Assembly: GCA_031431875.1 (NCBI GenBank)
Contig: JANPEF010000033.1
Location: 1 to 16,064, forward strand
Source: Candidatus Eiseniibacteriota bacterium
GTDB taxonomy: Bacteria > Eisenbacteria > RBG-16-71-46 > DASYSL01
Length of the DNA: 16,064 nucleotides
Direction of reading: 5' to 3'
The notes under the pieces were generated by a model. The model ran no database searches. It was given only the letters and a program-made list of their open reading frames with translations, and was not told the DNA's origin. Made by a program: the position numbers and the translations under genes. Shown in pieces: positions 1 to 15,432 of this stretch. Position 1 is the stretch's first letter. The number at the start of each line of letters is the position of its first letter.

Positions 1-57
1 CTCCACGGCGATCCGCGGTGGAGCGCATTCCTGAAGAAAATGGGACTCGAGGACTGA
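1..57 (+). CDS. 3' end (partial) of an upstream TolB-like/TPR protein, probably another Ser/Thr kinase-TPR paralog
   Basis: Frame 1 reads LHGDPRWSAFLKKMGLED* (TGA 55-57). This matches the C-termini of the three complete kinases here: IGDDPRYTALVERMG, LRPDPRFKDLMRRMG, LRQHPRFMALLARMG. Not in the ORF track. Confidence 0.8.
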   Translation, partial: LHGDPRWSAFLKKMGLED

Positions 58-74
58 TCCCGGGCGGAGCCCGA

Positions 75-187
75 GTTGTAAAGCCCGGAGGGACCGTCCT
101 CTTCCGGGGAGCAGCGTTCGGTTCGTACGAATCGTACAGACCGTACGCTCACCTCCGAGAGACCACCGCGCCCGCGGGCTTTACAAC
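75..187. repeat. ~110-bp nested palindromic intergenic element, copy 1
   Basis: Perfect 13-bp terminal inverted repeat GTTGTAAAGCCCG (75-87) / CGGGCTTTACAAC (175-187). Central imperfect hairpin GCGTTCGGTTCGTACG-AAT-CGTACAGACCGTACGC (114-148). Homologous to 12974-13082. Confidence 0.85.
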
Positions 188-211
188 CCGCCCACGCCTC
201 CCCCTTCCGGG

Positions 212-217
212 TAAACT
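212..217 (+). promoter_or_regulatory. Putative -10 element (TAAACT) of a leaderless promoter
   Basis: TAnnnT hexamer 8 nt upstream of ATG 226; no Shine-Dalgarno in the C-rich spacer GCCGCCCC. Confidence 0.55.
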
Positions 218-225
218 GCCGCCCC

Positions 226-2580
<2,355 letters not shown>

Positions 2581-2846
2581 GTCGGACCGGAGTCGAGGCG
2601 GGAGTGGGGGCGGGCGAGACGTGGCCTGTCCCGGCACGGACACATCGGTCTCCCCGATGGCCCCGGTGGGCCATCCCGTACGATGATCGGCCGACGATCG
2701 CGATCGCAGGTTCGCGCCAATGCTGCATTCACGTGCCGGGTTCCGACGGCACGCCCCTTGCGAGCGGAAGCGGCGACCCGTGGACCAACCTTTCCGCGTC
2801 CATGCGGCTCGCTCTCAGGCATTCCACCTGAAGGGACCCTTGCTCC

Positions 2847-4154
2847 ATGAGACCGCACCGCCCTCACCGAGTCACCCCGCTCGCCGCAGTGCTTGCAACG
2901 GCCGCGTTGCTTGCGACCAACGCGCCACTCGCGCCCATCGTACTCCCCGCCTCGGCCGACGTCTCGCCGGTCTATGTCGTCCTCTTCACGCACGTCGAGG
3001 ACAACACCCCGGGCGGCATACTGGGCTCGATGCAATCGCAGCAGAACTACCTGGTGCAGCGCGCGAACCTGATCGCCATGGCGGACCTGGCGTTGGGCGC
3101 GGGCGTGCAATGGACGCTCCAGCCCGACTGGAAACTGCTCGAGGCCGCCCTCCTCTACGAGGACGCGGCGCTCCAGGCATCGACCGGCGACAAGAACTTC
3201 CTGCGCTACCTGAGGGAGGACCTTGGGGTCGTCATCGATCCGCACTCGCACGAGAACGGCGGCTACAACTACACCGACGTCGCGCACCTGCTCGACTCCC
3301 TCGGCGTCGGCGCGACGTCCGTGATCGGCGGGCACGTCTGGGATCCGTCGCTGCCGCAGTTCCAGGCCTGGGATCGCTTCCGCACGCCGGTGATCGGCGA
3401 GCACTACCCCGGTGCGTCGTGGCGCGGCGACATCCTGATCGGCAGCGGGACGCCCAATCACGTCAACGATCCGATCCTCAGCGGCGTGTGGCGTCCGCGC
3501 GATCGCGATCACTATTTCGAGCACGACCCCGCCGCCAACATCGCGGCGATCGGCTCGTACAAGAAGTCGATCGCGAGCATCGCCGAGCTGGTCGAGTCAT
3601 ACCGCTCGGGTACGGTCCCGCCGACCGCCATGCTCACCTTCGGCACGAACATCAACCCCGCCACGCTCGGCGCGCCCGGCGGGCTCGCGGCGGTCGCCGA
3701 CACGGTGATCGCCCCGCTCGTCGCCTGGCGCGACAGCGGGCTCGTGGTCCTGACCGACTTCACCTCGCTCATCGCGACCTGGGAGACGACGTTCGGCGCG
3801 TTCGGCTATGTCCACGACGCCGAGGCGTCGGTGGTCGGCGTCCCTGCGCAGTCGGCGGCGAGCCCCGCCGCCCTCGTTGCGCTTGCACCGGCCGCGCCCA
3901 ATCCGGTGAGCGGGACGACGCTCCTGCGCTACGCGCTGGGGAGTGAGGCGCACGTTCGGTTGTCGATCGTCGACGTGCGCGGCCGCGAGGTGGCGGTGCT
4001 GGTCGACGGGCAGCGGGCCGCAGGCGCGCACGTGGTCACCTGGGATGCCCGGCCTCAGGCGCGCGGCGTGTATGTCTGTCGACTCGTGGCCCGCCGCACG
4101 GATGGAATCGGCGGGTCGGCGGGCCAGGCGCGGAAGCTGATCATCGTGCGGTAG
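2847..4154 (+). CDS. Secreted protein: polysaccharide deacetylase/glycoside hydrolase-like barrel plus C-terminal FlgD-Ig/T9SS type A-like domain
   Basis: Hydrophobic N-terminus ending ...LPASA-D. Candidate metal-binding motifs VLFTHVED and IDPHSHE. C-terminus PNPVSGTTLLRYAL...VRLSIVDVRGREVAVLVDG...GVYVCRL...RKLIIVR. SD-like AAGGGA at 2831-2836. The catalytic assignment is tentative. Confidence 0.8.
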   Translation: MRPHRPHRVTPLAAVLATAALLATNAPLAPIVLPASADVSPVYVVLFTHVEDNTPGGILGSMQSQQNYLVQRANLIAMADLALGAGVQWTLQPDWKLLEAALLYEDAALQASTGDKNFLRYLREDLGVVIDPHSHENGGYNYTDVAHLLDSLGVGATSVIGGHVWDPSLPQFQAWDRFRTPVIGEHYPGASWRGDILIGSGTPNHVNDPILSGVWRPRDRDHYFEHDPAANIAAIGSYKKSIASIAELVESYRSGTVPPTAMLTFGTNINPATLGAPGGLAAVADTVIAPLVAWRDSGLVVLTDFTSLIATWETTFGAFGYVHDAEASVVGVPAQSAASPAALVALAPAAPNPVSGTTLLRYALGSEAHVRLSIVDVRGREVAVLVDGQRAAGAHVVTWDARPQARGVYVCRLVARRTDGIGGSAGQARKLIIVR

Positions 4155-4180
4155 GGAGCCGCGTCAGACCCCCGCCCACG

Positions 4181-4209
4181 AAACAACCTGCCCCGGGGCA
4201 GGTTGCTTT
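4181..4209. terminator. Probable bidirectional intrinsic terminator between convergent genes
   Basis: Perfect 22-bp palindrome CAACCTGCCCCGGGGCAGGTTG (4184-4205), flanked by AAA and CTTT, between stops at 4154 (+) and 4221 (-). The T-tracts are short. Confidence 0.7.
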
Positions 4210-4220
4210 ACTCGCCCCCG

Positions 4221-7200
4221 CTACCGTACCAACACGATCTTTCGGACCGCGCCCAGTCGCGCGCCATCCGCCGTCCGCAGGTCGAGGCGGACGAAGTAGG
4301 TGCCGGCGGCGAGCGGCGCGCCCCGGTCCTCGCGGGCGACCCAGCGCAGGTGGTGGCTGCCGGCCGCGAACTCGGCCGCCGGAATGCGCGCGACCTCGCG
4401 GCCGCGCACGTCGTGCACCGTGAGTTCGACTTCGCCACGCATCGGCAGGTCGAATGCCACGTCGGTCGCGCCGCGGAATGGGTTGGGGCGCGGCATCTGC
4501 AGCGCGAAGGCCAGGCCGGCACCGTCGGCTTTGCCCAGCTCCGCATCGGCCGCATGCCCGCCGTTGCCGCCGCCGAGCGCCGGAGTGTGGATCACGATCG
4601 AACCGCCGCCCAGGGCAGTCGTGTCGTCGGTATCGTCCGCCGCTCCGCTCTGGTTGTCGTACACGATGCCGCCGCCGGCGGCGTACCAGATCTTCATTCG
4701 CATCCGATCGGGCCCCGGGGATCCACCCTCGTCCCCGTCGATCGCCGTGAGCAGGAAGCGGTACGAGCCGCTGCCGTTGATCGTCCCGAAGCCCTTGTAC
4801 TGGGCGCGCGAGCCGGCGACGACCAGCCACTCGTACGACGTGCTGTGGAAGGTGAGTCCCGCGAGCTTGAACATGAACTCGGTCTCGCCGGTCGGGATCG
4901 AGGCGCCGCGCTTGTAGCGCGATTCGAAGCCGAAGTTCGCCTTGCCGCTGAGTCCGGGATTCGCCGCGTACGCGCCGGCAGGCGAGGTGATCCAGCCGCC
5001 TCCGGTGACGAAACCGGCGGCGGGATCGTAGATCACGACCATTGCGTCGACGCCGCCGACCTCGGTCGCCGTGCCCGTCGTGCCCAGGTCATTGGTGACC
5101 GTGAGGCGCACCAAGTAGACGCCCGCCTGCGTGAACGTGCGCATGGCCGTGACTGTGCCCGCGGCGTCGTTGACCACGCCCGCCTGCGTTGCGGTGTCGA
5201 AGGACCACTGGGCGAAATGCGTGCGTCCCGGGCCGTCGCCACCGAAGCTCCCGCTGAACGCCACCGGCTGGCCCACCGGGAACACCGAACCCGACGCGGG
5301 CGCGGTGATCGCCACGTTGAGCGCGAGGCTGGCGACGGTCACGGCGACATCCGCCAAATCGGCGCCACCGGCCCCGTCGCTCACCACGACACGGATCACG
5401 ATTGCGCCCGCCGCCGCCGGCGTCCACGCCACCTGTCCCGTGCCCGGATCGATGGTTGCGCCGACCGGGGATGGTGCGATCAACGAGAAGCCGAGCGTGT
5501 TGGCCGGCAGGTCGGCGTCGATGGCCGAGGTGGCGAACATTAGTGTCGCCCCCGGGGTCGTCGCCTGCGCGCCGGGCACGGTGAGAACCGGGGCCTGGTT
5601 CACCTCGTGGACGTGAATCGTGAACGCCTGCGTCTCCAGCAGTAGCGGAACGCCGTTGTCCGTGACGTGGGCGATGAGGCCGTAGTCGCTCGGCCCCTGG
5701 GCCTCGGTCGGCGTCCAGTCGAACATTCCGCTGCTCGCGCCGAGCGTCACGCCCGTCGGGACCGGCGGATCGAGCGAGAAGATCAGGTTCTCCGGCGGCA
5801 TGTTGCGCGAGCAGGGCTTGGCGAGCGGGCCCATGGCGCTCCCGTCGACCAGGAAGTAGTGCTCGTCCACGGCCGCGTAGCCAATGTGACCGGTGAGATT
5901 GCCCGCCGGCGCGGGGCTGTAGATCCCCACCGACGAGAACGCCGCGGCGGACCAGGCAAACGACGCGGGGCGGCCTCCGAGTGCGGACCACTTGATGGCG
6001 AACTCGCGCCCTTGCCCGTAGATTCCGCCACCGGGACGGTAGGCCTCGCGCCCACCGATGGCGGCCGTATTGGGGACCCACTCCCCCGACCCATCGGCCA
6101 GAAAGTACGGATTGCCCGTGGTCGTCTCGACCTGGATGTCGGCCCGGAACGGCAGGTGTGCCCAGGCCGGATTCACCGGGCCACCGCTGTTGAAGTTGCC
6201 ATTTGCCGCCGTGCCCCCGTCGCTCATCGGGTTGGTGGCGACGAGCTGAAACGACAACAGCGACTCCTCGTTCGCGTCCTTGTCGCCGACGGCCGCGAGT
6301 CCCAGCGGTGCGAAGGGATCCTTGTCGAGGAAGAAGAACAGGCCGTTGAACGGTTGCGCCGTGCGGAAACCCACGTAGAGATTCTCTTCGTCCCACGTCA
6401 TGAACCACTCGCCGTCGCCGCTCTGGAAGCGATTCATCCCGTCCGCATGATCGCCATACTCGTGTGGCGACACGAACCCGTCGACGATCGAGAGCGAGAT
6501 GAAGTCGCCCTCGTCCGCGCCACAGTCGGGATAGGCCGGGTCGCGTGGCTGCCCGTCGATATCCGTCGACGTCCAGGCGGGGACGATCGGCGTTCCTTCG
6601 CTCTCGACCGGGTTGGGCAGGGTGCTGCTGATGTGCAGGTCGTCGGCGGACAGAAACCGGGGATCGAACGGGCGGCTCGCATAGTCGAGGAGGCCGGATG
6701 CCAGCATCCAGTCGCGGAGCAGCGGCTTGTCGACGCCATTGAACGAGCCCACGAATCCGTTGGCCGGATCCGCGACGTGGAGCACGTTGAAGTCCGATTC
6801 CGATCCGTATCCCCCGATCCGTTCGAACCCGATGAACATCGCGTAGTGCTTCGCCGAGCCGGACTGGGGGCCCGTGAAGTTCGCGTAGATGTTGTTCAGG
6901 TTGACGATGCCCCCGGCGGTCGGCGAGAACAGGTCGATGGGCATCCAGCTTTCGTACGCCGTATTCGAGCATGCCGGATTGGTCGGTGCGATGCGCACGC
7001 TGTTGAACATCACGTTGTGGCGACCCGTCGTGGCCTGGCCGAAGGGCTGCAGCGCGATGCCGATGATGCGGCGCGTCGCCGTGACCGTGCTGTTCGACTG
7101 CAGGCCGGACACCATGTTGTTGTGGATCCGCGTCTCGCCCCCCGTGCTGGGCAGGGTGGCCCGGATCCCGGTCACGACTCCTGCCGCCACGTTCAGGTTC

Positions 7201-8825
7201 GCCAGGTCATGGATGCGATTGCTGGATATCGCGGCGACCCCGACCCCCCCGGCGTACGCGCCGGCGGATTCGAACAGGATGCCATCCACCGTGTTGGTCC
7301 CCGTGCTCGTGATGTTGCGGATCTCGCAACTCGCGATCGTGACGTCCTTCTGGTTCAGGCAGCGGACCCCGTAGGCCAACGAAGTGCCGCCGAGGTTGTT
7401 CACCGCCGCGCCGCCGATGACGGTGACCCCCCCGTCGATGACGCCGATCTCGTTGCCCTCGTCCGGAACCGTGCCGTTGCCCTCGAGGGCGATCCCCGCC
7501 GCAACGTCCTCGATCGTCAAGTTGAGGTAACGGTTGTGCGAGTTGGTGCCGGCCACGCCCAGCGGAACCAGCACGCTGCGCGCGCGGATCGCGATCGAAG
7601 TCGCGCGCAGGCGATTCTGCCGCACGGTGAGATCACGAAACGTGTTGTGCTGCGCCCCGTCGCTGGTCGACGAGGGCATGACGAGCAGCGCGGTCACCAG
7701 CGTCGTGCCGCCCCCGCTGGTGAGCGTCAGGCCACGCAACGTCAGGTAGTCGGCGCCGACGACACCGAGGAGCGGCCCGGCGCCCGCGAGATTCAGCGAG
7801 ACGGATCCCGTGCCTCCACTCTCCGTGCCGCGATACGACAGCGTTGCATTCCCGGCCGCCGGTTCGATCATCACCGGACTCGCGGCCGAGGCGCCCGCCA
7901 CGGGCCCGATCAGGAGCGGGAACGTCGTGTTCGTCGAGTCGTAGAGCGCGTCCGTCAGGAGCAGCGTGACTGCGCCGGCGATGCCGCGATGATTGAGGTC
8001 GGCGATGGCCTCGGACAAGCTCGGATACGCCTGGCCCGCCCCGACCGTGTAGGTTCCGCCCGCCAGCGGCGCGGGAGCTCCCGGCGTGAAGCGGATGAAA
8101 CGCGTCGGCCACTTGTTCGTCGTCATGTCACTGGTGTTGGTCGCGCTCGATCCGGTGATCGCGTCGATGTACGAGAATTCGGCGGCCGCCAGGCCGATCG
8201 AAGCGGACTCGCCCGTGTTGTAGGCGACGCCGCTCGTCGGTCCGTAGCGGAATTCGATGGCGTTGCTGCCCTCCTCGAGGACGAGCTGGAAATTGATGCG
8301 CCGGGGCTGGCCGAGGGCCACCGTGGCGAAGGACGAGACGTCGGTCCATTGCACGGTCAGCGTCTGGCTGCCGGCCACACCCGCCACTTGATACAGCACG
8401 GCACCGGCCGGATTCGCCCCGACGGCCCCGATCGTGAGGTTGTCGAACCACGGCTCCATCGCGGGCAAGCCCAGCGCGGGGCCGAAATTCGCGTTGTTCG
8501 CTGGGGTGGTGACGCTCGAGGTCGAGAGGAATGCATGTCCGTTGGTGCAGATGGCGAGGAACGAAGCGGTGGTGTAGGACGCCCCGCCGTAGGTGAAGGC
8601 GAACGGCAGCGGAATCGAGGTGGTCCCGTCGTTGAGATCGGCAAACGCGACCGCAGTGGCCCCGCCGCCCGGACTGATGGCCGTGTAGGTCCCGACCGAC
8701 GTCGAGCGCGTGTAGCTGAGCTGGGCCTCGGCCGGGAGGGTCACTCCGAGGCCGAGCCCCGTGAGGACGAGCAGAATGCCGACAGGGCGGAGACCTGGGC
8801 GCAACTGTGGTCGTGTGACGGTCAC
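4221..8825 (-). CDS. Large secreted multidomain surface protein (~1534 aa): N-terminal beta domain, parallel beta-helix, DOMON/CBM9-like domain, two cadherin-like Ig repeats, PKD domain, VTGGGWI domain, FlgD-Ig/T9SS-like CTD
   Basis: Start re-called to GTG 8825 (GGGGGA 5 nt upstream), giving signal peptide MTVTRPQ...GILLVLTGLGLGVTLPAEA-Q. Beta-helix cap YTVGAGQAYPSLSEAIADL; tail DIDGQPRDPAYPDCGADE; WFMTWDEENLYVGF; NQAPVL..DADLPANTLGFSL..WTP; FTQAGVYLVRLTVTND; YDPAAGFVTGGGWI; PNPFRGAT..VHDVRGREV..GTYFVRL..RKIVLVR. Confidence 0.9.
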   Translation of the reverse strand: MTVTRPQLRPGLRPVGILLVLTGLGLGVTLPAEAQLSYTRSTSVGTYTAISPGGGATAVAFADLNDGTTSIPLPFAFTYGGASYTTASFLAICTNGHAFLSTSSVTTPANNANFGPALGLPAMEPWFDNLTIGAVGANPAGAVLYQVAGVAGSQTLTVQWTDVSSFATVALGQPRRINFQLVLEEGSNAIEFRYGPTSGVAYNTGESASIGLAAAEFSYIDAITGSSATNTSDMTTNKWPTRFIRFTPGAPAPLAGGTYTVGAGQAYPSLSEAIADLNHRGIAGAVTLLLTDALYDSTNTTFPLLIGPVAGASAASPVMIEPAAGNATLSYRGTESGGTGSVSLNLAGAGPLLGVVGADYLTLRGLTLTSGGGTTLVTALLVMPSSTSDGAQHNTFRDLTVRQNRLRATSIAIRARSVLVPLGVAGTNSHNRYLNLTIEDVAAGIALEGNGTVPDEGNEIGVIDGGVTVIGGAAVNNLGGTSLAYGVRCLNQKDVTIASCEIRNITSTGTNTVDGILFESAGAYAGGVGVAAISSNRIHDLANLNVAAGVVTGIRATLPSTGGETRIHNNMVSGLQSNSTVTATRRIIGIALQPFGQATTGRHNVMFNSVRIAPTNPACSNTAYESWMPIDLFSPTAGGIVNLNNIYANFTGPQSGSAKHYAMFIGFERIGGYGSESDFNVLHVADPANGFVGSFNGVDKPLLRDWMLASGLLDYASRPFDPRFLSADDLHISSTLPNPVESEGTPIVPAWTSTDIDGQPRDPAYPDCGADEGDFISLSIVDGFVSPHEYGDHADGMNRFQSGDGEWFMTWDEENLYVGFRTAQPFNGLFFFLDKDPFAPLGLAAVGDKDANEESLLSFQLVATNPMSDGGTAANGNFNSGGPVNPAWAHLPFRADIQVETTTGNPYFLADGSGEWVPNTAAIGGREAYRPGGGIYGQGREFAIKWSALGGRPASFAWSAAAFSSVGIYSPAPAGNLTGHIGYAAVDEHYFLVDGSAMGPLAKPCSRNMPPENLIFSLDPPVPTGVTLGASSGMFDWTPTEAQGPSDYGLIAHVTDNGVPLLLETQAFTIHVHEVNQAPVLTVPGAQATTPGATLMFATSAIDADLPANTLGFSLIAPSPVGATIDPGTGQVAWTPAAAGAIVIRVVVSDGAGGADLADVAVTVASLALNVAITAPASGSVFPVGQPVAFSGSFGGDGPGRTHFAQWSFDTATQAGVVNDAAGTVTAMRTFTQAGVYLVRLTVTNDLGTTGTATEVGGVDAMVVIYDPAAGFVTGGGWITSPAGAYAANPGLSGKANFGFESRYKRGASIPTGETEFMFKLAGLTFHSTSYEWLVVAGSRAQYKGFGTINGSGSYRFLLTAIDGDEGGSPGPDRMRMKIWYAAGGGIVYDNQSGAADDTDDTTALGGGSIVIHTPALGGGNGGHAADAELGKADGAGLAFALQMPRPNPFRGATDVAFDLPMRGEVELTVHDVRGREVARIPAAEFAAGSHHLRWVAREDRGAPLAAGTYFVRLDLRTADGARLGAVRKIVLVR

Positions 8826-9021
8826 GGGGATCCCCCGATGGAGTCGTTGGTCGTGAGTCGGCCTGGTGGGTCGGGGGGTGATCGCTCGCCTGCAATGCAG
8901 CGCGACGGGGCAGGAGTCGCGCCCCGTGAAGCTCCGGTTCCCCCCGGATCCGGAGTCCGCGGGGGCTTCTGTGCCCTCGTCGCTCATGAGGTGCAACGAT
9001 GCCGCGCGAGGGAACGCACAG

Positions 9022-9045
9022 AAAAAATTGCGCCATGGGTGGCGC
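9022..9045 (-). terminator. Putative intrinsic terminator downstream of the minus-strand kinase
   Basis: Minus strand reads GCGCCA-CCCA-TGGCGC-AA-TTTTTT, starting 16 nt after the stop at 9062. Confidence 0.55.
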
Positions 9046-9061
9046 GGGTGCGGGCAGGCGG

Positions 9062-11434
9062 CTAGGAGTCGATCCCCATGCGGCGCATCAGGTCCTTGAA
9101 GCGCGGGTCCGGGCGCAGCTTGCGGTAGGTGGGATCGGAGCGGACGTAGAGCAGGGCCTGGTAGCGTTTTGCGTACGCCAGCTCGAGCCAGGTCATGGCG
9201 CTGTCGGGTTCATCGAGGTAGCAGAAGAGGCTGGCGATGGCGCACGGGTTCTCCTGTCCGTAGCCGTCGCGCATGCGCGCGATGTCCGCGCGCCAGAACG
9301 CCTCGGCACCGCCGCGCGCGTAGGCCGCGCGCAGGCCGGCGATCTTCGCGGGCTCGGCGCTCTGGAACCCGATGCTCGACAGGTAGTCGTAGACGATCAA
9401 TTGTTGCTCGATTCCCTCGTGGATCAGGCCCTTCTGGTGGTAGGCGCTCTCGAGGGAGAAGTAGATGTCCATCCAGGTCGAGTCCAGCTCCAGCGTGCGG
9501 TAGCCTTGGCGGATGCCGTCGTCATAGCGACCGACATTGATCAGCAGCTGGGTGAGTCCCTGGTTGGTGCGGATCGACAGCGGGTCGAGTTCGCGCGCGC
9601 GCTGCGAGTGCGCCACCGCCTCGTCACCGCGCCCCATCACGCTCAGGTAGCTGGCCATCGCCCGATGCGCCATCGCGTTCCCCGGACTGAGCCGCAGTGC
9701 CGTGCGGAGATGGGCGGCGGCCTCGGGGAAGTTCCAGTCCGCGATCATCAGCAACCGGCCGACGATGATGTGCGCCTCGACGGAGGTGGAGTCGATGGCG
9801 ATGGCCCGGAGCGCGAGAGCCCGGGCGCGATCGTACGCCGACGTCGTGGGCATTCCACCGAACAAGCCGAGGTGCAGGTAGCAATCCGCCTGCTCCGCGT
9901 AGGCGCGCGCGAAATCCGGCTGGCGGCGGATCGCGTCGGCGAAGTACTCGATCGCCTTCCGCACGTCGACCACCTGGACCTTGTCGCGGTAGTAGCGGCC
10001 CTTGAGATAGCTGTCGTACGCGGCCGGGTCGACAGGTCGCGGGCGCGCGAGTTGCGCGCGCTTTCCGGGCGAGATCTTGGCCTCGATCTCGTCGACGATC
10101 GCCAGGGCCACTTCGGTGCGCAGGCTCGACAGGTCGGAGGCGTCGCGATCGTAGGAGTGCGCCCACAGGTGCTCGTCGGTCGAGGCGCGGATGAGCTGGG
10201 TGGTGACGCGCAGGCGGTCGCCGACGCGACCGATCGAACCCTCGATGACGGCGTCCACGCCGAGCTCGCGGCCGATGACTGGCATCGGCTTGGGGTTCTT
10301 CCTGTACCCCATGGTCGACGTGCGCGAGATCACGCGCAGGGATGGGATCTGCGCGAGGTTGGCGATCAGTTCCTCGGTGAGGCCGTCGGCGAGGAACTCC
10401 TGCGTCGAATCGGCCGATAGATTGGCGAACGGCAGCACCGCGAGCGAGCGGATCGGCGGCCGCCCGGCGATGCGCTCGCGCCAGTCGCCGACGTCGAGCA
10501 ACGCCAGCGCCGCCCCGGCGGCCACGACGGCGAGGGCGATCGCGAGCGTGCGCCAGCGCGGGCGACGCATGGTGAACGTGCGCTGCGCCTGCTCCACGGG
10601 GTGCATCGGCTGGTCGATACGATCGAGGTCGGCGAGGAGCGCGGCCGCGTCCGGGTAGCGGCGCGCGGGATCCTTCTGCAGCAGTTTCCAGATCACCCAC
10701 TCGAGTCGGCGCGACAGTGCCGGGTTGAGAGAGCGCGGCGGCCGGGGACGCTGCTTGAGGATCTGCAGGCACAGCGCTGCGGGTGCATCGGAATCGAACG
10801 GCAGGCGCCCGGTCGCCATCTGGTAGAGCACGACGCCGAGCGAATAGAGGTCGGCGCGTCCGTCGACCTCGTGCCCCAGCACCTGCTCGGGCGCCATGTA
10901 GGACAGGGTGCCGCCGGCCGGGCTCATCGAGCTGAGCCGCTCGCTCAGCGCCTGGCTGCGCGCGGAGTCGAGCTTGGCCAGCCCGAAATCGAGCACCTTC
11001 AGCCCGCCCGAACCCGTGAGCATGACGTTGCCGGGCTTGAGGTCGCGGTGAATGACCTTCTGTTCGTGCGCGGCCTGGAGCGCCAGGGCGATCGAGCGTG
11101 CCGAGGCCCGGACCTCGGACTCCGGCACGGCGCCTTCGTGCATCCGGGCTTCGAGCGTCTTCCCGACGAGGAATTCCATGACGAGGAAGTCGACGCCATC
11201 CTGGGTATCGAACTCGAAGATCGAGGCGATGGAAGGATGGTTCAGTCGCGAGAGGGCAGTGGCCTCGCGCCGGAACCGGCGGCGTGCCTCGGGATCGGCG
11301 CCCGCGCCGGCGTGGAGCACCTTGAGTGCGACGTCGCGGTCGAGTTGTTCGTCGCGCGCACGATAGACCACGCCCATCCCACCCGCTCCCAGCCGATCGA
11401 GGATGCGATAGTGGGAAAGCGACGAACCGATCAT
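9062..11434 (-). CDS. Ser/Thr protein kinase with one predicted TM segment, TolB-like domain and TPR repeats
   Basis: Start re-called to ATG 11434 (MIGSSLSHYRILDRLGAGGMGVVY). Motifs VALK, HRDLKPGN, DFG, GTLSYMAPE. Hydrophobic WRTLAIALAVVAAGAALALLDV (~10490-10555). SLAVLPFANLSADSTQEFLADGLTEELI, TPR-like repeats, DPRF..RMG tail. Confidence 0.95.
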   Translation of the reverse strand: MIGSSLSHYRILDRLGAGGMGVVYRARDEQLDRDVALKVLHAGAGADPEARRRFRREATALSRLNHPSIASIFEFDTQDGVDFLVMEFLVGKTLEARMHEGAVPESEVRASARSIALALQAAHEQKVIHRDLKPGNVMLTGSGGLKVLDFGLAKLDSARSQALSERLSSMSPAGGTLSYMAPEQVLGHEVDGRADLYSLGVVLYQMATGRLPFDSDAPAALCLQILKQRPRPPRSLNPALSRRLEWVIWKLLQKDPARRYPDAAALLADLDRIDQPMHPVEQAQRTFTMRRPRWRTLAIALAVVAAGAALALLDVGDWRERIAGRPPIRSLAVLPFANLSADSTQEFLADGLTEELIANLAQIPSLRVISRTSTMGYRKNPKPMPVIGRELGVDAVIEGSIGRVGDRLRVTTQLIRASTDEHLWAHSYDRDASDLSSLRTEVALAIVDEIEAKISPGKRAQLARPRPVDPAAYDSYLKGRYYRDKVQVVDVRKAIEYFADAIRRQPDFARAYAEQADCYLHLGLFGGMPTTSAYDRARALALRAIAIDSTSVEAHIIVGRLLMIADWNFPEAAAHLRTALRLSPGNAMAHRAMASYLSVMGRGDEAVAHSQRARELDPLSIRTNQGLTQLLINVGRYDDGIRQGYRTLELDSTWMDIYFSLESAYHQKGLIHEGIEQQLIVYDYLSSIGFQSAEPAKIAGLRAAYARGGAEAFWRADIARMRDGYGQENPCAIASLFCYLDEPDSAMTWLELAYAKRYQALLYVRSDPTYRKLRPDPRFKDLMRRMGIDS

Positions 11435-11473
11435 GCGCCCCAAGCCTGTTCGAGGGAACTGCGGGGGTGGTCC

Positions 11474-11507
11474 ATCGTAGCACGCGGCCGAGGAACTCTG
11501 ATATCAT
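11474..11507. promoter_or_regulatory. Back-to-back divergent extended -10 promoters for the kinase (-) and the ECF sigma (+)
   Basis: Minus strand TG-c-TACGAT (11482-11474). Plus strand TG-a-TATCAT (11499-11507), followed 8 nt later by ATG 11516 with no SD. Confidence 0.55.
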
Positions 11508-11515
11508 CCTCGCCG

Positions 11516-12115
11516 ATGAGCGAACCGACCAACCTCCCCCCGGGCGCAGCCGTACAGTCGCCGTCGCTCACCGAGCTCGTCACGCGCGCCAAGTCGGGAG
11601 ATCAGGCTGCACTCGACGAGCTGTTTCGCCTCCACTACCCGATCCTCCGGCGCCTCGCCCACCGCCGGCTCTCGGATCGATCGCGCCGCGACAAGGACAC
11701 CGACGACGTGGTGCAGATCACCTTGCTGCGGGCCATGCGCGGGCTCAAGGATTTCGAGTCGCGCTGGGAAAACGCGTGGCTCTCCTACCTGCGGCAGATC
11801 CTCTTCAACTACCTGCGCGACGAGGGCCGCCGGGCCGGACGACTGCCGGAGGTCGAGGAGTTCGACGGCGACATGCCGGGCACGACCGCCTCGCCATTGG
11901 ATCGGATCGTCGAGGCCGAGACGCTGTCGGCGTACCAGGCTGCGCTCGCCCGGCTGCCGGACCGGCAACGCCAGGCCGTGGTGCTGCGGATCGAGCAGGG
12001 GCTGGGCTACGCCGAGATCGGCGAGCGACTGGGCCTGCCGACCGGGGGCGCGGCGCGCATGATGGTGAAGCGATCGATCGCGCGACTCGCGGGGATGATC
12101 GACCAGCGGAAGTGA
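11516..12115 (+). CDS. ECF-type RNA polymerase sigma-70 factor (199 aa)
   Basis: True start inside track ORF 10601..12115 (MSEPTNL...). Sigma2: LVTRAKSGDQAALDELFRLHYPILRRLA...DTDDVVQITLLRA...WLSYLRQILFNYLRD. Sigma4: ALARLPDRQRQAVVLRIEQGLGYAEIGERLG...RSIARL. Confidence 0.93.
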   Translation: MSEPTNLPPGAAVQSPSLTELVTRAKSGDQAALDELFRLHYPILRRLAHRRLSDRSRRDKDTDDVVQITLLRAMRGLKDFESRWENAWLSYLRQILFNYLRDEGRRAGRLPEVEEFDGDMPGTTASPLDRIVEAETLSAYQAALARLPDRQRQAVVLRIEQGLGYAEIGERLGLPTGGAARMMVKRSIARLAGMIDQRK

Positions 12116-12973: not shown

Positions 12974-13082
12974 TTGTGAAGCCCGGGGGCCGGAACCTCT
13001 CCCGGGAGGTGCGTACGGTTTGTACGTTTCGTACGGAACGTACGCCCTCCCGGAGAGACCAGCCCGACCCCGGACCTTGCAA
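12974..13082. repeat. ~110-bp nested palindromic intergenic element, copy 2
   Basis: Outer imperfect IR TTGTGAAGCCCGGGG / CCCCGGACCTTGCAA. Middle stem CTCTCCCGGGAGG / CCTCCCGGAGAG. Core GCGTACGGTTTGTACG-TTT-CGTACGGAACGTACGC (13011-13045), 29/35 identical to 114-148. Confidence 0.85.
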
Positions 13083-13161: not shown

Positions 13162-13167
13162 TAGAGT
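13162..13167 (+). promoter_or_regulatory. Putative -10 element (TAGAGT) of a leaderless promoter
   Basis: TAnnnT 9 nt upstream of ATG 13177, no SD. Same GG-TAnnnT...CC-ATG layout as 210-228. Confidence 0.5.
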
Positions 13168-13176
13168 CTTCCCGCC

Positions 13177-15432
13177 ATGCCCCTCTCCCCTGGCACCCGC
13201 CTCGGCACCTACGAGATCGTCGCGCCCCTCGGCGCCGGCGGCATGGGCGAGGTGTATCGCGCCCGCGACCTCAGGCTCGGTCGCGAGGTCGCGCTCAAGG
13301 TGCTGCCCGCCGACGTGGCCTCCGACGCCGGGCAGCTGGCCCGCCTCGAGCGCGAGGCGCGCACCGTCGCCGGGCTCAATCATCCGAACATCGTCACGTT
13401 GTTCTCGGTCGAGGACGAGGACGGCGTGCGCTTCCTCACCATGGAGCTGATCGAGGGCCCGCGCCTGGACCAGCTCGTCGTGCCCGGCGGGCTGCCGATC
13501 GCGCGCGTGCTCGAGCTGGGCGGCGCCATCGCCGACGCGCTCGCGGCCGCGCACGAGAGGGGTGTCGTCCACCGCGATCTCAAGCCCGCCAACGTCATGC
13601 GCACGCGCGACGGGCGCGTGAAGGTGCTCGACTTCGGACTTGCCCGCATGGCGACCGGCAGTCAGGACGCGCTCGACGCCACTCGGCTCACCGGCGTGGG
13701 CGAAGTGATGGGCACCGCCCCCTACATGGCGCCCGAGCAGGTCCGCGGCGAGGCGCTGGACGCGCGCACCGACCTGTTCGCGCTCGGCGTCGTGCTCTAC
13801 GAGCTCTTGACCGGGCGTCGGCCGTTCGTCGGTGTCACCGCGGCGGACGTGAGTTCTTCGATCCTGCGCGACGCGCCGCCGCCCGCGCGCGAGCTGCGCC
13901 CCGACCTGCCGTCGGACGTCGGTCGAATTCTCGAGCGTTGCCTCGAGAAGGACCGCGAGCAGCGCGTGCAGACCGCCAGGGACGTGCGCAACGAGCTCGA
14001 GCGCGCGCGGCGGGCGCTGGAGTCCGGCGCGACCGAGGCACAGCACGCCCCGGCGACGGAGCCGCCCTCGATCGCCGTGCTGCCGTTCACCAACCGCGGC
14101 AAGGACGAGGAGGACGAGTACTTCGCCGATGGCATCACCGAGGACGTGATCGCGCAGCTGTGCAAGGTGCGCACGCTCAAGGTGATCTCGCGCTCGTCGG
14201 TGATGTCGTTCCGCAATCGCGAGGAGAGCGTGCAGGACATCGCGGCGCGCCTGCAGGTGCGCAACATCCTCGAGGGCAGCGTGCGCCGGGTCGGCGATCG
14301 CGTGCGCATCGTCGCCCAGCTCATTCACGCCGCCTCGGGCCGCCACCTGTGGGCTGAGACCTTCGACCGCCAGCTCACCGACATCTTCGCGATCCAGAGC
14401 GAGGTCGCGCTGCACATCGCCAACGCGCTCAAGGCCGAGCTGTCGCCAAACGAGCGCGAGCGCATCGGCAGGAAGCCGACCGACGACGTGCAGGCCTACG
14501 AGATCTACCTGCGCGGACGGCAGGCCCTGGACCGTTTCACGACCGAGGAGACGCTCCGGAGCATCGACTTCTTCGAGCTCGCCATCGCCCGCGATCCCGG
14601 GTTCGCGCTCGCGCATGCCGGACTCTCGTTGGCCTACTCCGAGATGGTCGACTACGGCTCGATGGCCCGTGACCAGGCCCGGGCTCCGGCGCTGGCCGCC
14701 GCGGCGAAGGCGGTCGCGCTCGATCCCGATCTCGGTGACGCACACTGTGCGCAGGCGTTCGCGCTGCTGGTCATGGAGCTGGACTGGGTGGGTGCCGAGG
14801 CGGGGTTCAAGCGCGCGCTCGAACTCGCGCCGGGAAACTCGCACGTCTACGACCTGTACGGACTCCTGTGTTCCGGCCTCGAACGCTTTGACGAGGCGAT
14901 CGTGCTGCAGAGGCGCGCGCAGGAGCTCGACCCGCTCACCCACCGCACGGACGTCGGCAACACGCTCCTGCGTGCCGGCCGGAACGAGGAGGCGGTGGAA
15001 GCCCTCACCCGTTCCGCGAAGTTCGATCCGCATGATCCGCGCTTGCGCGCGACGCTTGGCTGGGCGTTGTTCCGTCTGGGGCGCATTGACGAGGGCCTCG
15101 CCGAGCTGGAGCGCGCGGTCGCGATCACGCCCGCCGAGAACCTGTGGCTGGCGCAACTCGGGCAGGCCTACGGCATGGTGGGCCAGCGTGAGCGGGCGCT
15201 CGATATCCTGAGGCGGCTCGAGGATCCGTCCCGGCCGACGCCCGTGTCGCCGTACCAGCTCGCGTTCGTCCACCTGGGGCTCGGCGACCAGGAGCGCGCG
15301 ATGGACTGCCTGGAGCGCGCCTACGAGCTGGGCATCGGCTCGGTCTACGGGATGAGGGGATCGTTCCTGTTGGCGCCCCTGCGGCAGCATCCGCGGTTCA
15401 TGGCGCTGCTCGCGAGAATGGGCCAGGGGTGA
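13177..15432 (+). CDS. Ser/Thr protein kinase with TolB-like domain and TPR repeats (paralog of 226..2580, no TM seen)
   Basis: GAGGMGEVY, VALK, HRDLKPAN, DFG, GTAPYMAPE; SIAVLPFTNRGKDEEDEYFADGITEDVI; TPR-like repeats; HPRF..RMG tail. The first 31 aa differ from the 226 kinase at only 3 positions. Confidence 0.95.
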   Translation: MPLSPGTRLGTYEIVAPLGAGGMGEVYRARDLRLGREVALKVLPADVASDAGQLARLEREARTVAGLNHPNIVTLFSVEDEDGVRFLTMELIEGPRLDQLVVPGGLPIARVLELGGAIADALAAAHERGVVHRDLKPANVMRTRDGRVKVLDFGLARMATGSQDALDATRLTGVGEVMGTAPYMAPEQVRGEALDARTDLFALGVVLYELLTGRRPFVGVTAADVSSSILRDAPPPARELRPDLPSDVGRILERCLEKDREQRVQTARDVRNELERARRALESGATEAQHAPATEPPSIAVLPFTNRGKDEEDEYFADGITEDVIAQLCKVRTLKVISRSSVMSFRNREESVQDIAARLQVRNILEGSVRRVGDRVRIVAQLIHAASGRHLWAETFDRQLTDIFAIQSEVALHIANALKAELSPNERERIGRKPTDDVQAYEIYLRGRQALDRFTTEETLRSIDFFELAIARDPGFALAHAGLSLAYSEMVDYGSMARDQARAPALAAAAKAVALDPDLGDAHCAQAFALLVMELDWVGAEAGFKRALELAPGNSHVYDLYGLLCSGLERFDEAIVLQRRAQELDPLTHRTDVGNTLLRAGRNEEAVEALTRSAKFDPHDPRLRATLGWALFRLGRIDEGLAELERAVAITPAENLWLAQLGQAYGMVGQRERALDILRRLEDPSRPTPVSPYQLAFVHLGLGDQERAMDCLERAYELGIGSVYGMRGSFLLAPLRQHPRFMALLARMGQG

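Follow-up and report, generated by a model that had tools for sequence, protein, structure and literature searches.

A dispersed, two-fold symmetric repeat of Candidatus Eisenbacteria shares its hexamer core with Phd/YefM toxin-antitoxin promoters

The Escherichia coli antitoxin YefM binds TGTACA cores placed 12 bp apart in the L and S palindromes of the yefM-yoeB operator (PMC1802561). Upstream of pneumococcal yefM-yoeB, a dispersed BOX element adds a promoter which the antitoxin does not control, and another antitoxin, MqsA, is reported to act at other genes (PMC4803016). Among dispersed bacterial repeats, REPINs are extragenic and two-fold symmetric units of about 100 bp which are vertically inherited, diversify within lineages, and are anchored to one single-copy gene, the RAYT (bioRxiv 10.1101/2021.07.10.451892). 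MITEs such as ERIC, RUP, and Correia have terminal inverted repeats, a long predicted hairpin, a bias toward gene 3' ends, and no transposase gene, and some of them carry protein sites (IHF) or promoters (PMC3184786, PMC10969869).

The repeat described here combines features of each of these systems. It has the same class of hexamer (YGTACR) as yefM-yoeB and likewise precedes a Phd/YefM antitoxin gene of the same fold family, followed by a gene of the RelE/ParE superfamily; it differs in having three to seven sites at a 9-bp period rather than two at 12 bp, in that the array is embedded in a symmetric unit of 110-140 bp present in 6-16 copies per genome off the operon, and in that the toxin is eroded or deleted. 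Judged on these sequence features, it may be classed as a putative Phd/YefM operator. It shares with REPINs all the properties listed above, but occurs in tens rather than hundreds of copies, has ends that are not short hairpins, is most conserved at its centre, and is anchored to an antitoxin instead of a RAYT. With MITEs it shares size, terminal inverted repeats, hairpin, 3'-end bias, and the lack of a transposase gene, but no target-site duplication was found, nor, among 14 IS110 and rve loci, an insertion sequence (IS) with matching ends; the available portions of the MITE sources (PMC3184786, PMC10969869) make no mention of an antitoxin-type operator array. Both BOX and the present element are dispersed repeats at a yefM-type promoter, but BOX is not built of operator sites, and the MqsA sites are single palindromes that form no repeat family, as far as the available part of the source describes them (PMC4803016). 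Listings of openly accessible literature showed no prior description of the element.

The window, i.e. the whole stretch of DNA analyzed (16,064 nt), is an entire contig (C33) of genome G000, which comprises 3.75 Mb at 70% GC. Features of the window are summarized in Table 1.

Table 1. Positions of the two element copies, their parts, and neighbouring kinase genes in the window.
Feature	Position (nt)	Strand	Remarks
3' end of kinase-TPR gene (…KKMGLED, stop)	4..57	+	Same as end of the C69 kinase
Element copy 1	76..186		111 nt, TTG...CAA; inverted repeat runs a few bases beyond the terminal motifs
Left terminal motif, copy 1 (TTGTAAAGCCCG)	76..87	+	39 nt ahead of core
Core, copy 1	115..147		Four YGTACR hexamers, 9-bp period (115, 124, 133, 142)
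Right terminal motif, copy 1	175..186	-	39 nt past core
Ser/Thr kinase-TPR gene (kinase 1)	226..2580	+	Downstream of copy 1; neighbour, outside the element
Third kinase-TPR gene of the window	9062..11443	-	No element copy adjoining; internal control
Element copy 2	12974..13082		109 nt; identical at orthologous site of G002
Core, copy 2	13012..13044		Four YGTACR hexamers, 9-bp period (13012, 13021, 13030, 13039)
Ser/Thr kinase-TPR gene	13177..15432	+	94 nt downstream of copy 2; neighbour

The initial annotation, made from this DNA alone, had described the two copies as a palindrome repeated upstream of two kinase genes, and that description holds. Their 35-nt cores are identical at 29 of 35 positions, and in a search against the G000 genome the copies share 76% gapped identity over 116 columns (E 4e-13). 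Copy 1 begins 18 nt past the stop codon of the kinase-TPR gene that ends at position 57, and its first hexamer, CGTTCG, has one mismatch to YGTACR. Within the window a three-hexamer pattern has four matches, all in the two copies, and none was obtained in 200 shuffles. Likeness between the copies ends at the element borders and returns only at the kinase ATG, and the element is therefore a discrete unit, as had been proposed; the combination of just two copies with similarity continuous into the kinase coding sequence, which the initial annotation took to speak against its reading, was not seen.

An iterated profile identified 16 copies in G000 (E 1e-26 to 1e-12, next match E 8), all intergenic, with one overlapping a doubtful gene start, where gene positions are those of a simple purpose-made gene caller. 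Using a covariance model together with patterns, 63 more loci were found in relatives (10 in G001, 15 in G002, 11 in G003, 13 in G004, 6 in G005, and 8 in G007; L230, L242, L243, and L244, which are inside genes or weak, L246, which gave no hit, and duplicate hits were left out), for a family total of 79 loci in seven genomes. The earlier suggestion of a MITE/REP-like element is supported. Across the order (102 genomes), the model finds six carriers, and G005, missed by the model, was recovered by pattern; the remaining 95 genomes gave no match at E<=5e-4. The four-hexamer pattern is present in 5 of 206 genomes of the phylum. In a contig collection, the best-scoring named records for the element profile, among the matches listed, were Candidatus Eisenbacteria, and locus L158 scores likewise among those listed. 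Neither the element nor a relative of the antitoxin was found in viral contigs, and plasmids gave one Phd/YefM match.

Several other kinds of match were set aside. Elsewhere, matches of the bare four-hexamer pattern were, among those listed, mostly Streptomyces 9-bp tandem repeats without arms; the loci concerned (L069-L148, Streptomyces and others, again among the matches listed), from many actinobacterial genomes, are simple tandem 9-mers with a CGTACG core, both genic and intergenic. Further order-wide matches of the terminal 13-mer were chance matches in coding or promoter sequence, bar one extra G004 copy. At L230 and L243 (G003 and G004) a hexamer array falls inside a gene resembling those for metal-binding proteins, at its start, and codes there for RTFRT repeats in a signal peptide. 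G000 also contains a second repeat family, GCCTTCGCYTGATTCGGCAAC, in inverted pairs (C91:82055, 82434, 82641; C7:3124/3212; C90:134/201) and at the ends of C24, C51, C71, C112, C113, and C118; two direct copies of it flank the C91 element with its antitoxin remnant.

Each copy of the element is two-fold symmetric, with a core of three to seven YGTACR hexamers and a terminal TTGT(A/C)AAGCC on each side, such that either half reads, outward from the centre, as YGTACR hexamers, about 26 variable bases, and CC(C/G)GGCTT(G/T)ACAA. Most copies have four hexamers at a 9-bp period, those of G005 have three, and those of G007 have six or seven, irregularly spaced. The terminal motif is kept on the left in 42, on the right in 43, and on both sides in 29 of 73 copies, most of the others retaining one end, and its distance from the core is constant, at 38-39 nt, in 72 of the 79 arms that keep it. 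In 14 pairs of orthologous copies, identity is highest in the hexamers (297/308, 96%), and lower in the spacers (95/111, 86%), arms (1056/1257, 84%), and flanks (1384/1608, 86%). Conservation of the hexamers could be a product of gene conversion or slippage.

The predicted fold of each window copy, in agreement with the folding described initially, is a single long hairpin with interruptions; z lies between -5.1 and -6.3 for both strands, and none of 200 shuffles did as well. A structured RNA or hairpin at transcript ends (terminator, stabiliser, or small RNA) would account for this, as well as for the bias of copies toward gene 3' ends and convergent gaps, but we consider it quite improbable: arms pair no better with their own partners (0.53-0.57) than with those of other copies (0.53-0.56), compensation within lineages is missing at both the Y/R positions and the spacers of the core, RNAalifold on a rough alignment returned almost no covariation, and nothing came near a gathering score of Rfam in the window or at seven loci. 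Own-partner pairing in the terminal part of the arm was 0.587 versus 0.56 (11 of 300 permutations). Complementary spacers, suggested by a pooled test (0.59 versus 0.37), reflected a mixing of lineages, and the effect was gone within lineages. The small RNA proposed from the window thus found no copy-specific complementarity or Rfam family in its favour. Among 34 two-ended copies, the check for target-site duplications that had been advised (lengths 2-9, offsets 0-6) gave nothing of at least 5 nt and short ones near shuffled levels, where it should be noted that old copies may have lost theirs. Taken together, the lack of compensatory change, of target-site duplication, and of an Rfam match argues for a protein-binding DNA site, presumably a symmetric one read by proteins on double-stranded DNA, rather than a structured RNA.

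What the initial annotation missed is the real anchor of the family, a Phd/YefM-RelE operon elsewhere in G000. Each of the seven carrier genomes has a copy immediately upstream of a Phd/YefM antitoxin gene; the site is orthologous among the six members of the genus (G000-G005), and in G007 it is elsewhere on the chromosome. The G002 antitoxin scores above cut-off for PF02604 and TIGR01552 and returned just three close proteins in a homology search; the closest solved relatives of the antitoxin are RelB (9g12) and P1 Phd. A RelE-like gene follows the antitoxin in six of the seven carriers. Of these toxins, that of G007 alone passes the Pfam ParE cut-off, and five are without equivalents of R81 and Y87, the joint loss of which nearly abolishes activity of E. 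coli RelE (PMC2807027); the G005 toxin keeps an HR pair. In G000 the toxin is deleted and the antitoxin loses its reading frame past residue 58; in that genome, therefore, the repeat may no longer have a reader. Comparison of G001 with G002 reveals 18 synonymous and 3 non-synonymous changes in antitoxin codons 1-50, and 19 of each in the toxin; across toxin genes, a synonymous excess over neutral expectation persists. As read from the gene sequences, the toxin of the carriers is eroded or deleted. Related operons without the element have ordinary promoters and the full toxin C-terminal motif wherever the toxin is readable.

The hexamers themselves link the element to this antitoxin family. In 39 related antitoxin promoters (non-redundant and element-free, from 46 loci minus 7 duplicates) there are 45 YGTACR in 3,900 nt versus 81 in 128,989 nt of the same loci, an 18-fold difference; 28 of the 39 have at least one, and the spacing of GTAC is 9 in 14 of 23 cases and 18 in 4. 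Without L101, which was found by the hexamer pattern itself, these values are 41 hexamers in 3,800 nt and a spacing of 9 in 11 of 20. Eight genomes (G008, G043, G049, G139, G153, G156, G194, and G195) have a related antitoxin, no element, and no four-hexamer array, and in seven of them the three-hexamer pattern is confined to their own TA promoter, plus one non-element match. G000-G002 have one more gene of the Phd family, and no YGTACR precedes it. By virtue of these shared hexamers, the operator that was among the initial suggestions is supported, and we infer that the core of copy 1 is an antitoxin operator array. An orphan Phd-type antitoxin gene without a toxin (L306, L307) has two YGTACR about 40 bp upstream of the -35 box, and not behind the -10 box.

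In G000, G001, and G002, the arm facing the antitoxin contains TTGTAA-17-TATGCT/TATGTT and resembles a sigma70 promoter that the array directly follows; the TA loci of G003, G004, G005, and G007 show no clear -10 box, and a promoter scan left the G000 TA promoter uncalled, below threshold (8/12 matches). Ordinary promoters have a -35-to-hexamer register of 38-39 in 4 of 12 cases and of 41-42 in 6 of 12. Promoter activity could not be generalized to the dispersed copies: as outward -35 boxes of hybrid promoters, just 2 of 85 ends have TAnnnT at 16-18 nt, and arms directed toward gene starts and gene ends are alike (P=0.51), which discounts inward promoters as a general feature. Given that the core matches the TA-promoter motif, and that a copy stands before the antitoxin in all seven carriers, the antitoxin likely binds copies genome-wide. 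We regard it as probable that the element is a TA promoter-operator which became symmetric and is being copied slowly, and that the antitoxin would bind every copy.

The main rival is an ordinary non-autonomous MITE/REP-type repeat which once picked up operator-like DNA, or arose from it, and whose core is silent, the dispersed copies being passengers and the hexamers off the operon being unread; we give it a lesser but real chance. Its terminal inverted motifs around a non-coding core, length of about 110 bp, below the roughly 400 bp to which MITEs run, and intergenic location are those of such repeats, as is its position: a copy is found within 30 nt of the gene 3' end in 40 of 73 cases and of the gene start in 12 of 67, and 20 of 66 gaps with a copy are convergent compared with 10-12% in G000, in counts that pool relatives which are not independent. 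Copies are moreover gained and lost between close relatives, and 16 persist in G000 although its TA operon is broken. However, the best kept parts are the interior hexamers, not the ends, many copies keep the core after losing one or both ends, the 34 two-ended copies lack a target duplication, and no IS with these ends was found among 14 IS110 and rve loci.

Candidates for a mobilizing enzyme were rejected. RAYTs have an HUH motif and a catalytic tyrosine; no RAYT (NF047646) scored above cut-off in five genomes, and the element flanks neither of two weak RAYT-like genes. Genes of IS110 and of IS3/IS21/IS481 type have no ends matching it, the only resemblance at the 14 IS110 and rve loci (five genomes) being a -35-like CTTGACAA at IS110 right ends. 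A single-copy Y1/IS200-like gene on C120 was dismissed, as it lies in the lexA operon, is without HUH, and has a relative, nearly always in single copy, in 91 of the 102 genomes of the order. The locus (L059:1456-2789) consists of lexA, the IS200/Y1-like gene with HUH replaced (TQIRL), and dinB, and appears to be an SOS operon carrying an HUH domain that was domesticated and has lost catalysis. A TGCAC-N4-GTGCA palindrome upstream of lexA and at two other intergenic sites is a candidate LexA box, which we take to resemble the Fibrobacter type.

Integron attC sites have ends of the form RYYYAAC ... GTTRRRY and operate with an integron integrase. A site of the attC or pdif kind, at which recombination captures and shuffles gene cassettes and the antitoxin array is an accessory, is brought to mind by contig C69, where a 550-bp insert splits an element: the left arm stays with the core, a DUF2200-like gene occupies the insert, and an orphan right arm follows 550 bp on. 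The left part is identical to window 1-105 (C69:5561-5665), beyond which the two diverge within the element. The two copies on C117, which separate small cassette-like genes, and the fixed two-fold geometry of the element point the same way. Nevertheless, we hold such a site to be improbable, as most copies lie at orthologous sites between stable housekeeping genes, the element ends GTTGT...ACAAC run in the opposite order to attC R''/R', no contig with a copy carries any of the three tyrosine recombinase genes, and an arm-only scan revealed no further convincing orphan arm. At this split element (L035, G000:C69:5634-6533), the DUF2200-like gene has an internal stop; past the orphan right arm come the spacer found at window copy 1 and a kinase gene truncated after 66 codons. 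In the sequencing reads, one run spans the C69 form, and window 1-210 was uncovered in four runs, which proves nothing; because the reads leave the junction of copy 1 unsettled, its left arm may represent a genuine repeat, variation among strains, or a branch in the assembly.

Association with kinase genes, the central proposal of the initial annotation, is weak, with a residual excess above chance that concerns a minority of copies. G000 contains 49 kinase-like ORFs or fragments, and 4 of its 16 copies adjoin a kinase gene compared with 3.5% of intergenic gaps (P=0.002), three of them upstream of one (P=0.004); in G003 and G004 a copy lies between two kinases. That the element should be an operator or a boundary mark of the kinase-TPR family in particular is most improbable, indeed already largely refuted: 12 of the 16 G000 copies and 69 of all 79 loci have no kinase next to them (where one G002 locus stops at the edge of its contig), only 6 of 63 copies in relatives do, and none of these is in G005 or G007. 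Within the window, the third kinase has no copy, and the orthologues of kinase 1 in G002 (92% nucleotide identity) and G001 (84%) have other DNA upstream, without the element. Both kinase genes downstream of a copy have their own -10-like box (TAAACT at 212-217 and TAGAGT at 13162-13167). More broadly, of 13 kinase genes with an MPLTPG-type start (including those preceded by window 212-225 and 13162-13176), most lack a Shine-Dalgarno sequence and show a TA(G/C)A.T-like box located 8-13 nt ahead of the ATG, a pattern suggestive of leaderless transcripts. A 9.5-kb block of the window (2588-12078), holding secreted FlgD-tail proteins, the third kinase, and an ECF sigma factor, is missing from the orthologous G002 contig and ends without an element.

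In an rpoB tree of five genomes with midpoint root, carriers G000, G001, and G007 grouped against G006 and G008 (100/100). With carriers forming one clade, their link to an eroded toxin counts as one event, not seven, and the pattern fits what would be a single origin of the repeat; the antitoxin tree does not resolve. The nearest neighbour of 71 of 74 copies is in the same lineage, even at sites shared between lineages, of which there is one at a gene 3' end in G003, G004, and G007 and one at a gene start in G004 and G005; by resemblance, we take these genes to be glucosidase-like and pruA-like, respectively. The closest paralogue of the TA-locus copy is a dispersed copy in G000, G003, and G007, and the C91 copy of G000 retains a decayed antitoxin start. 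In the comparison with empty sites that had been proposed initially, presence differs between close relatives, but empty sites are too diverged to give clean ends.

To return to the operator reading, the repeat has probably spread, slowly, from the promoter of a Phd/YefM toxin-antitoxin operon. On double-stranded DNA, antitoxin dimers would occupy adjacent YGTACR sites; in the case of the TA operon, occupation of the array would amount to autorepression. At gene 3' ends and in convergent gaps, a bound array could serve as a roadblock or insulator that blocks read-through, or the dispersed copies could form a decoy pool, with the disarmed RelE as a putative co-repressor. The step with the least support is copying itself: some enzyme might read the terminal TTGT(A/C)AAGCC at its fixed distance from the array and copy the unit without target duplication, in a REPIN-like manner, and recombination between copies may contribute to turnover. 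A more far-reaching version, which we put forward tentatively as a possibility, is that the TA module has been domesticated: its toxin would have been disarmed, and its promoter-operator would have become a repeat, symmetric and self-propagating, which provides the antitoxin with landing pads genome-wide, the array being perhaps an accessory site for the copying enzyme.

If the domestication of the module is true, the element would represent a regulon or chromosome-organizing network spread by a mobile operator, and a REPIN-like partnership founded on an antitoxin instead of a transposase. In each of four lineages the array has a version of its own, which corresponds to the TA-locus copy of that lineage; together these may offer a natural set for protein-site co-evolution. 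The TA promoter would give a dispersed bacterial repeat a traceable origin, with a small antitoxin of 88 residues as its candidate reader, and the family bears on the origin of REP/MITE-like repeats and on chromosomal antitoxins that may have turned into wider regulators.
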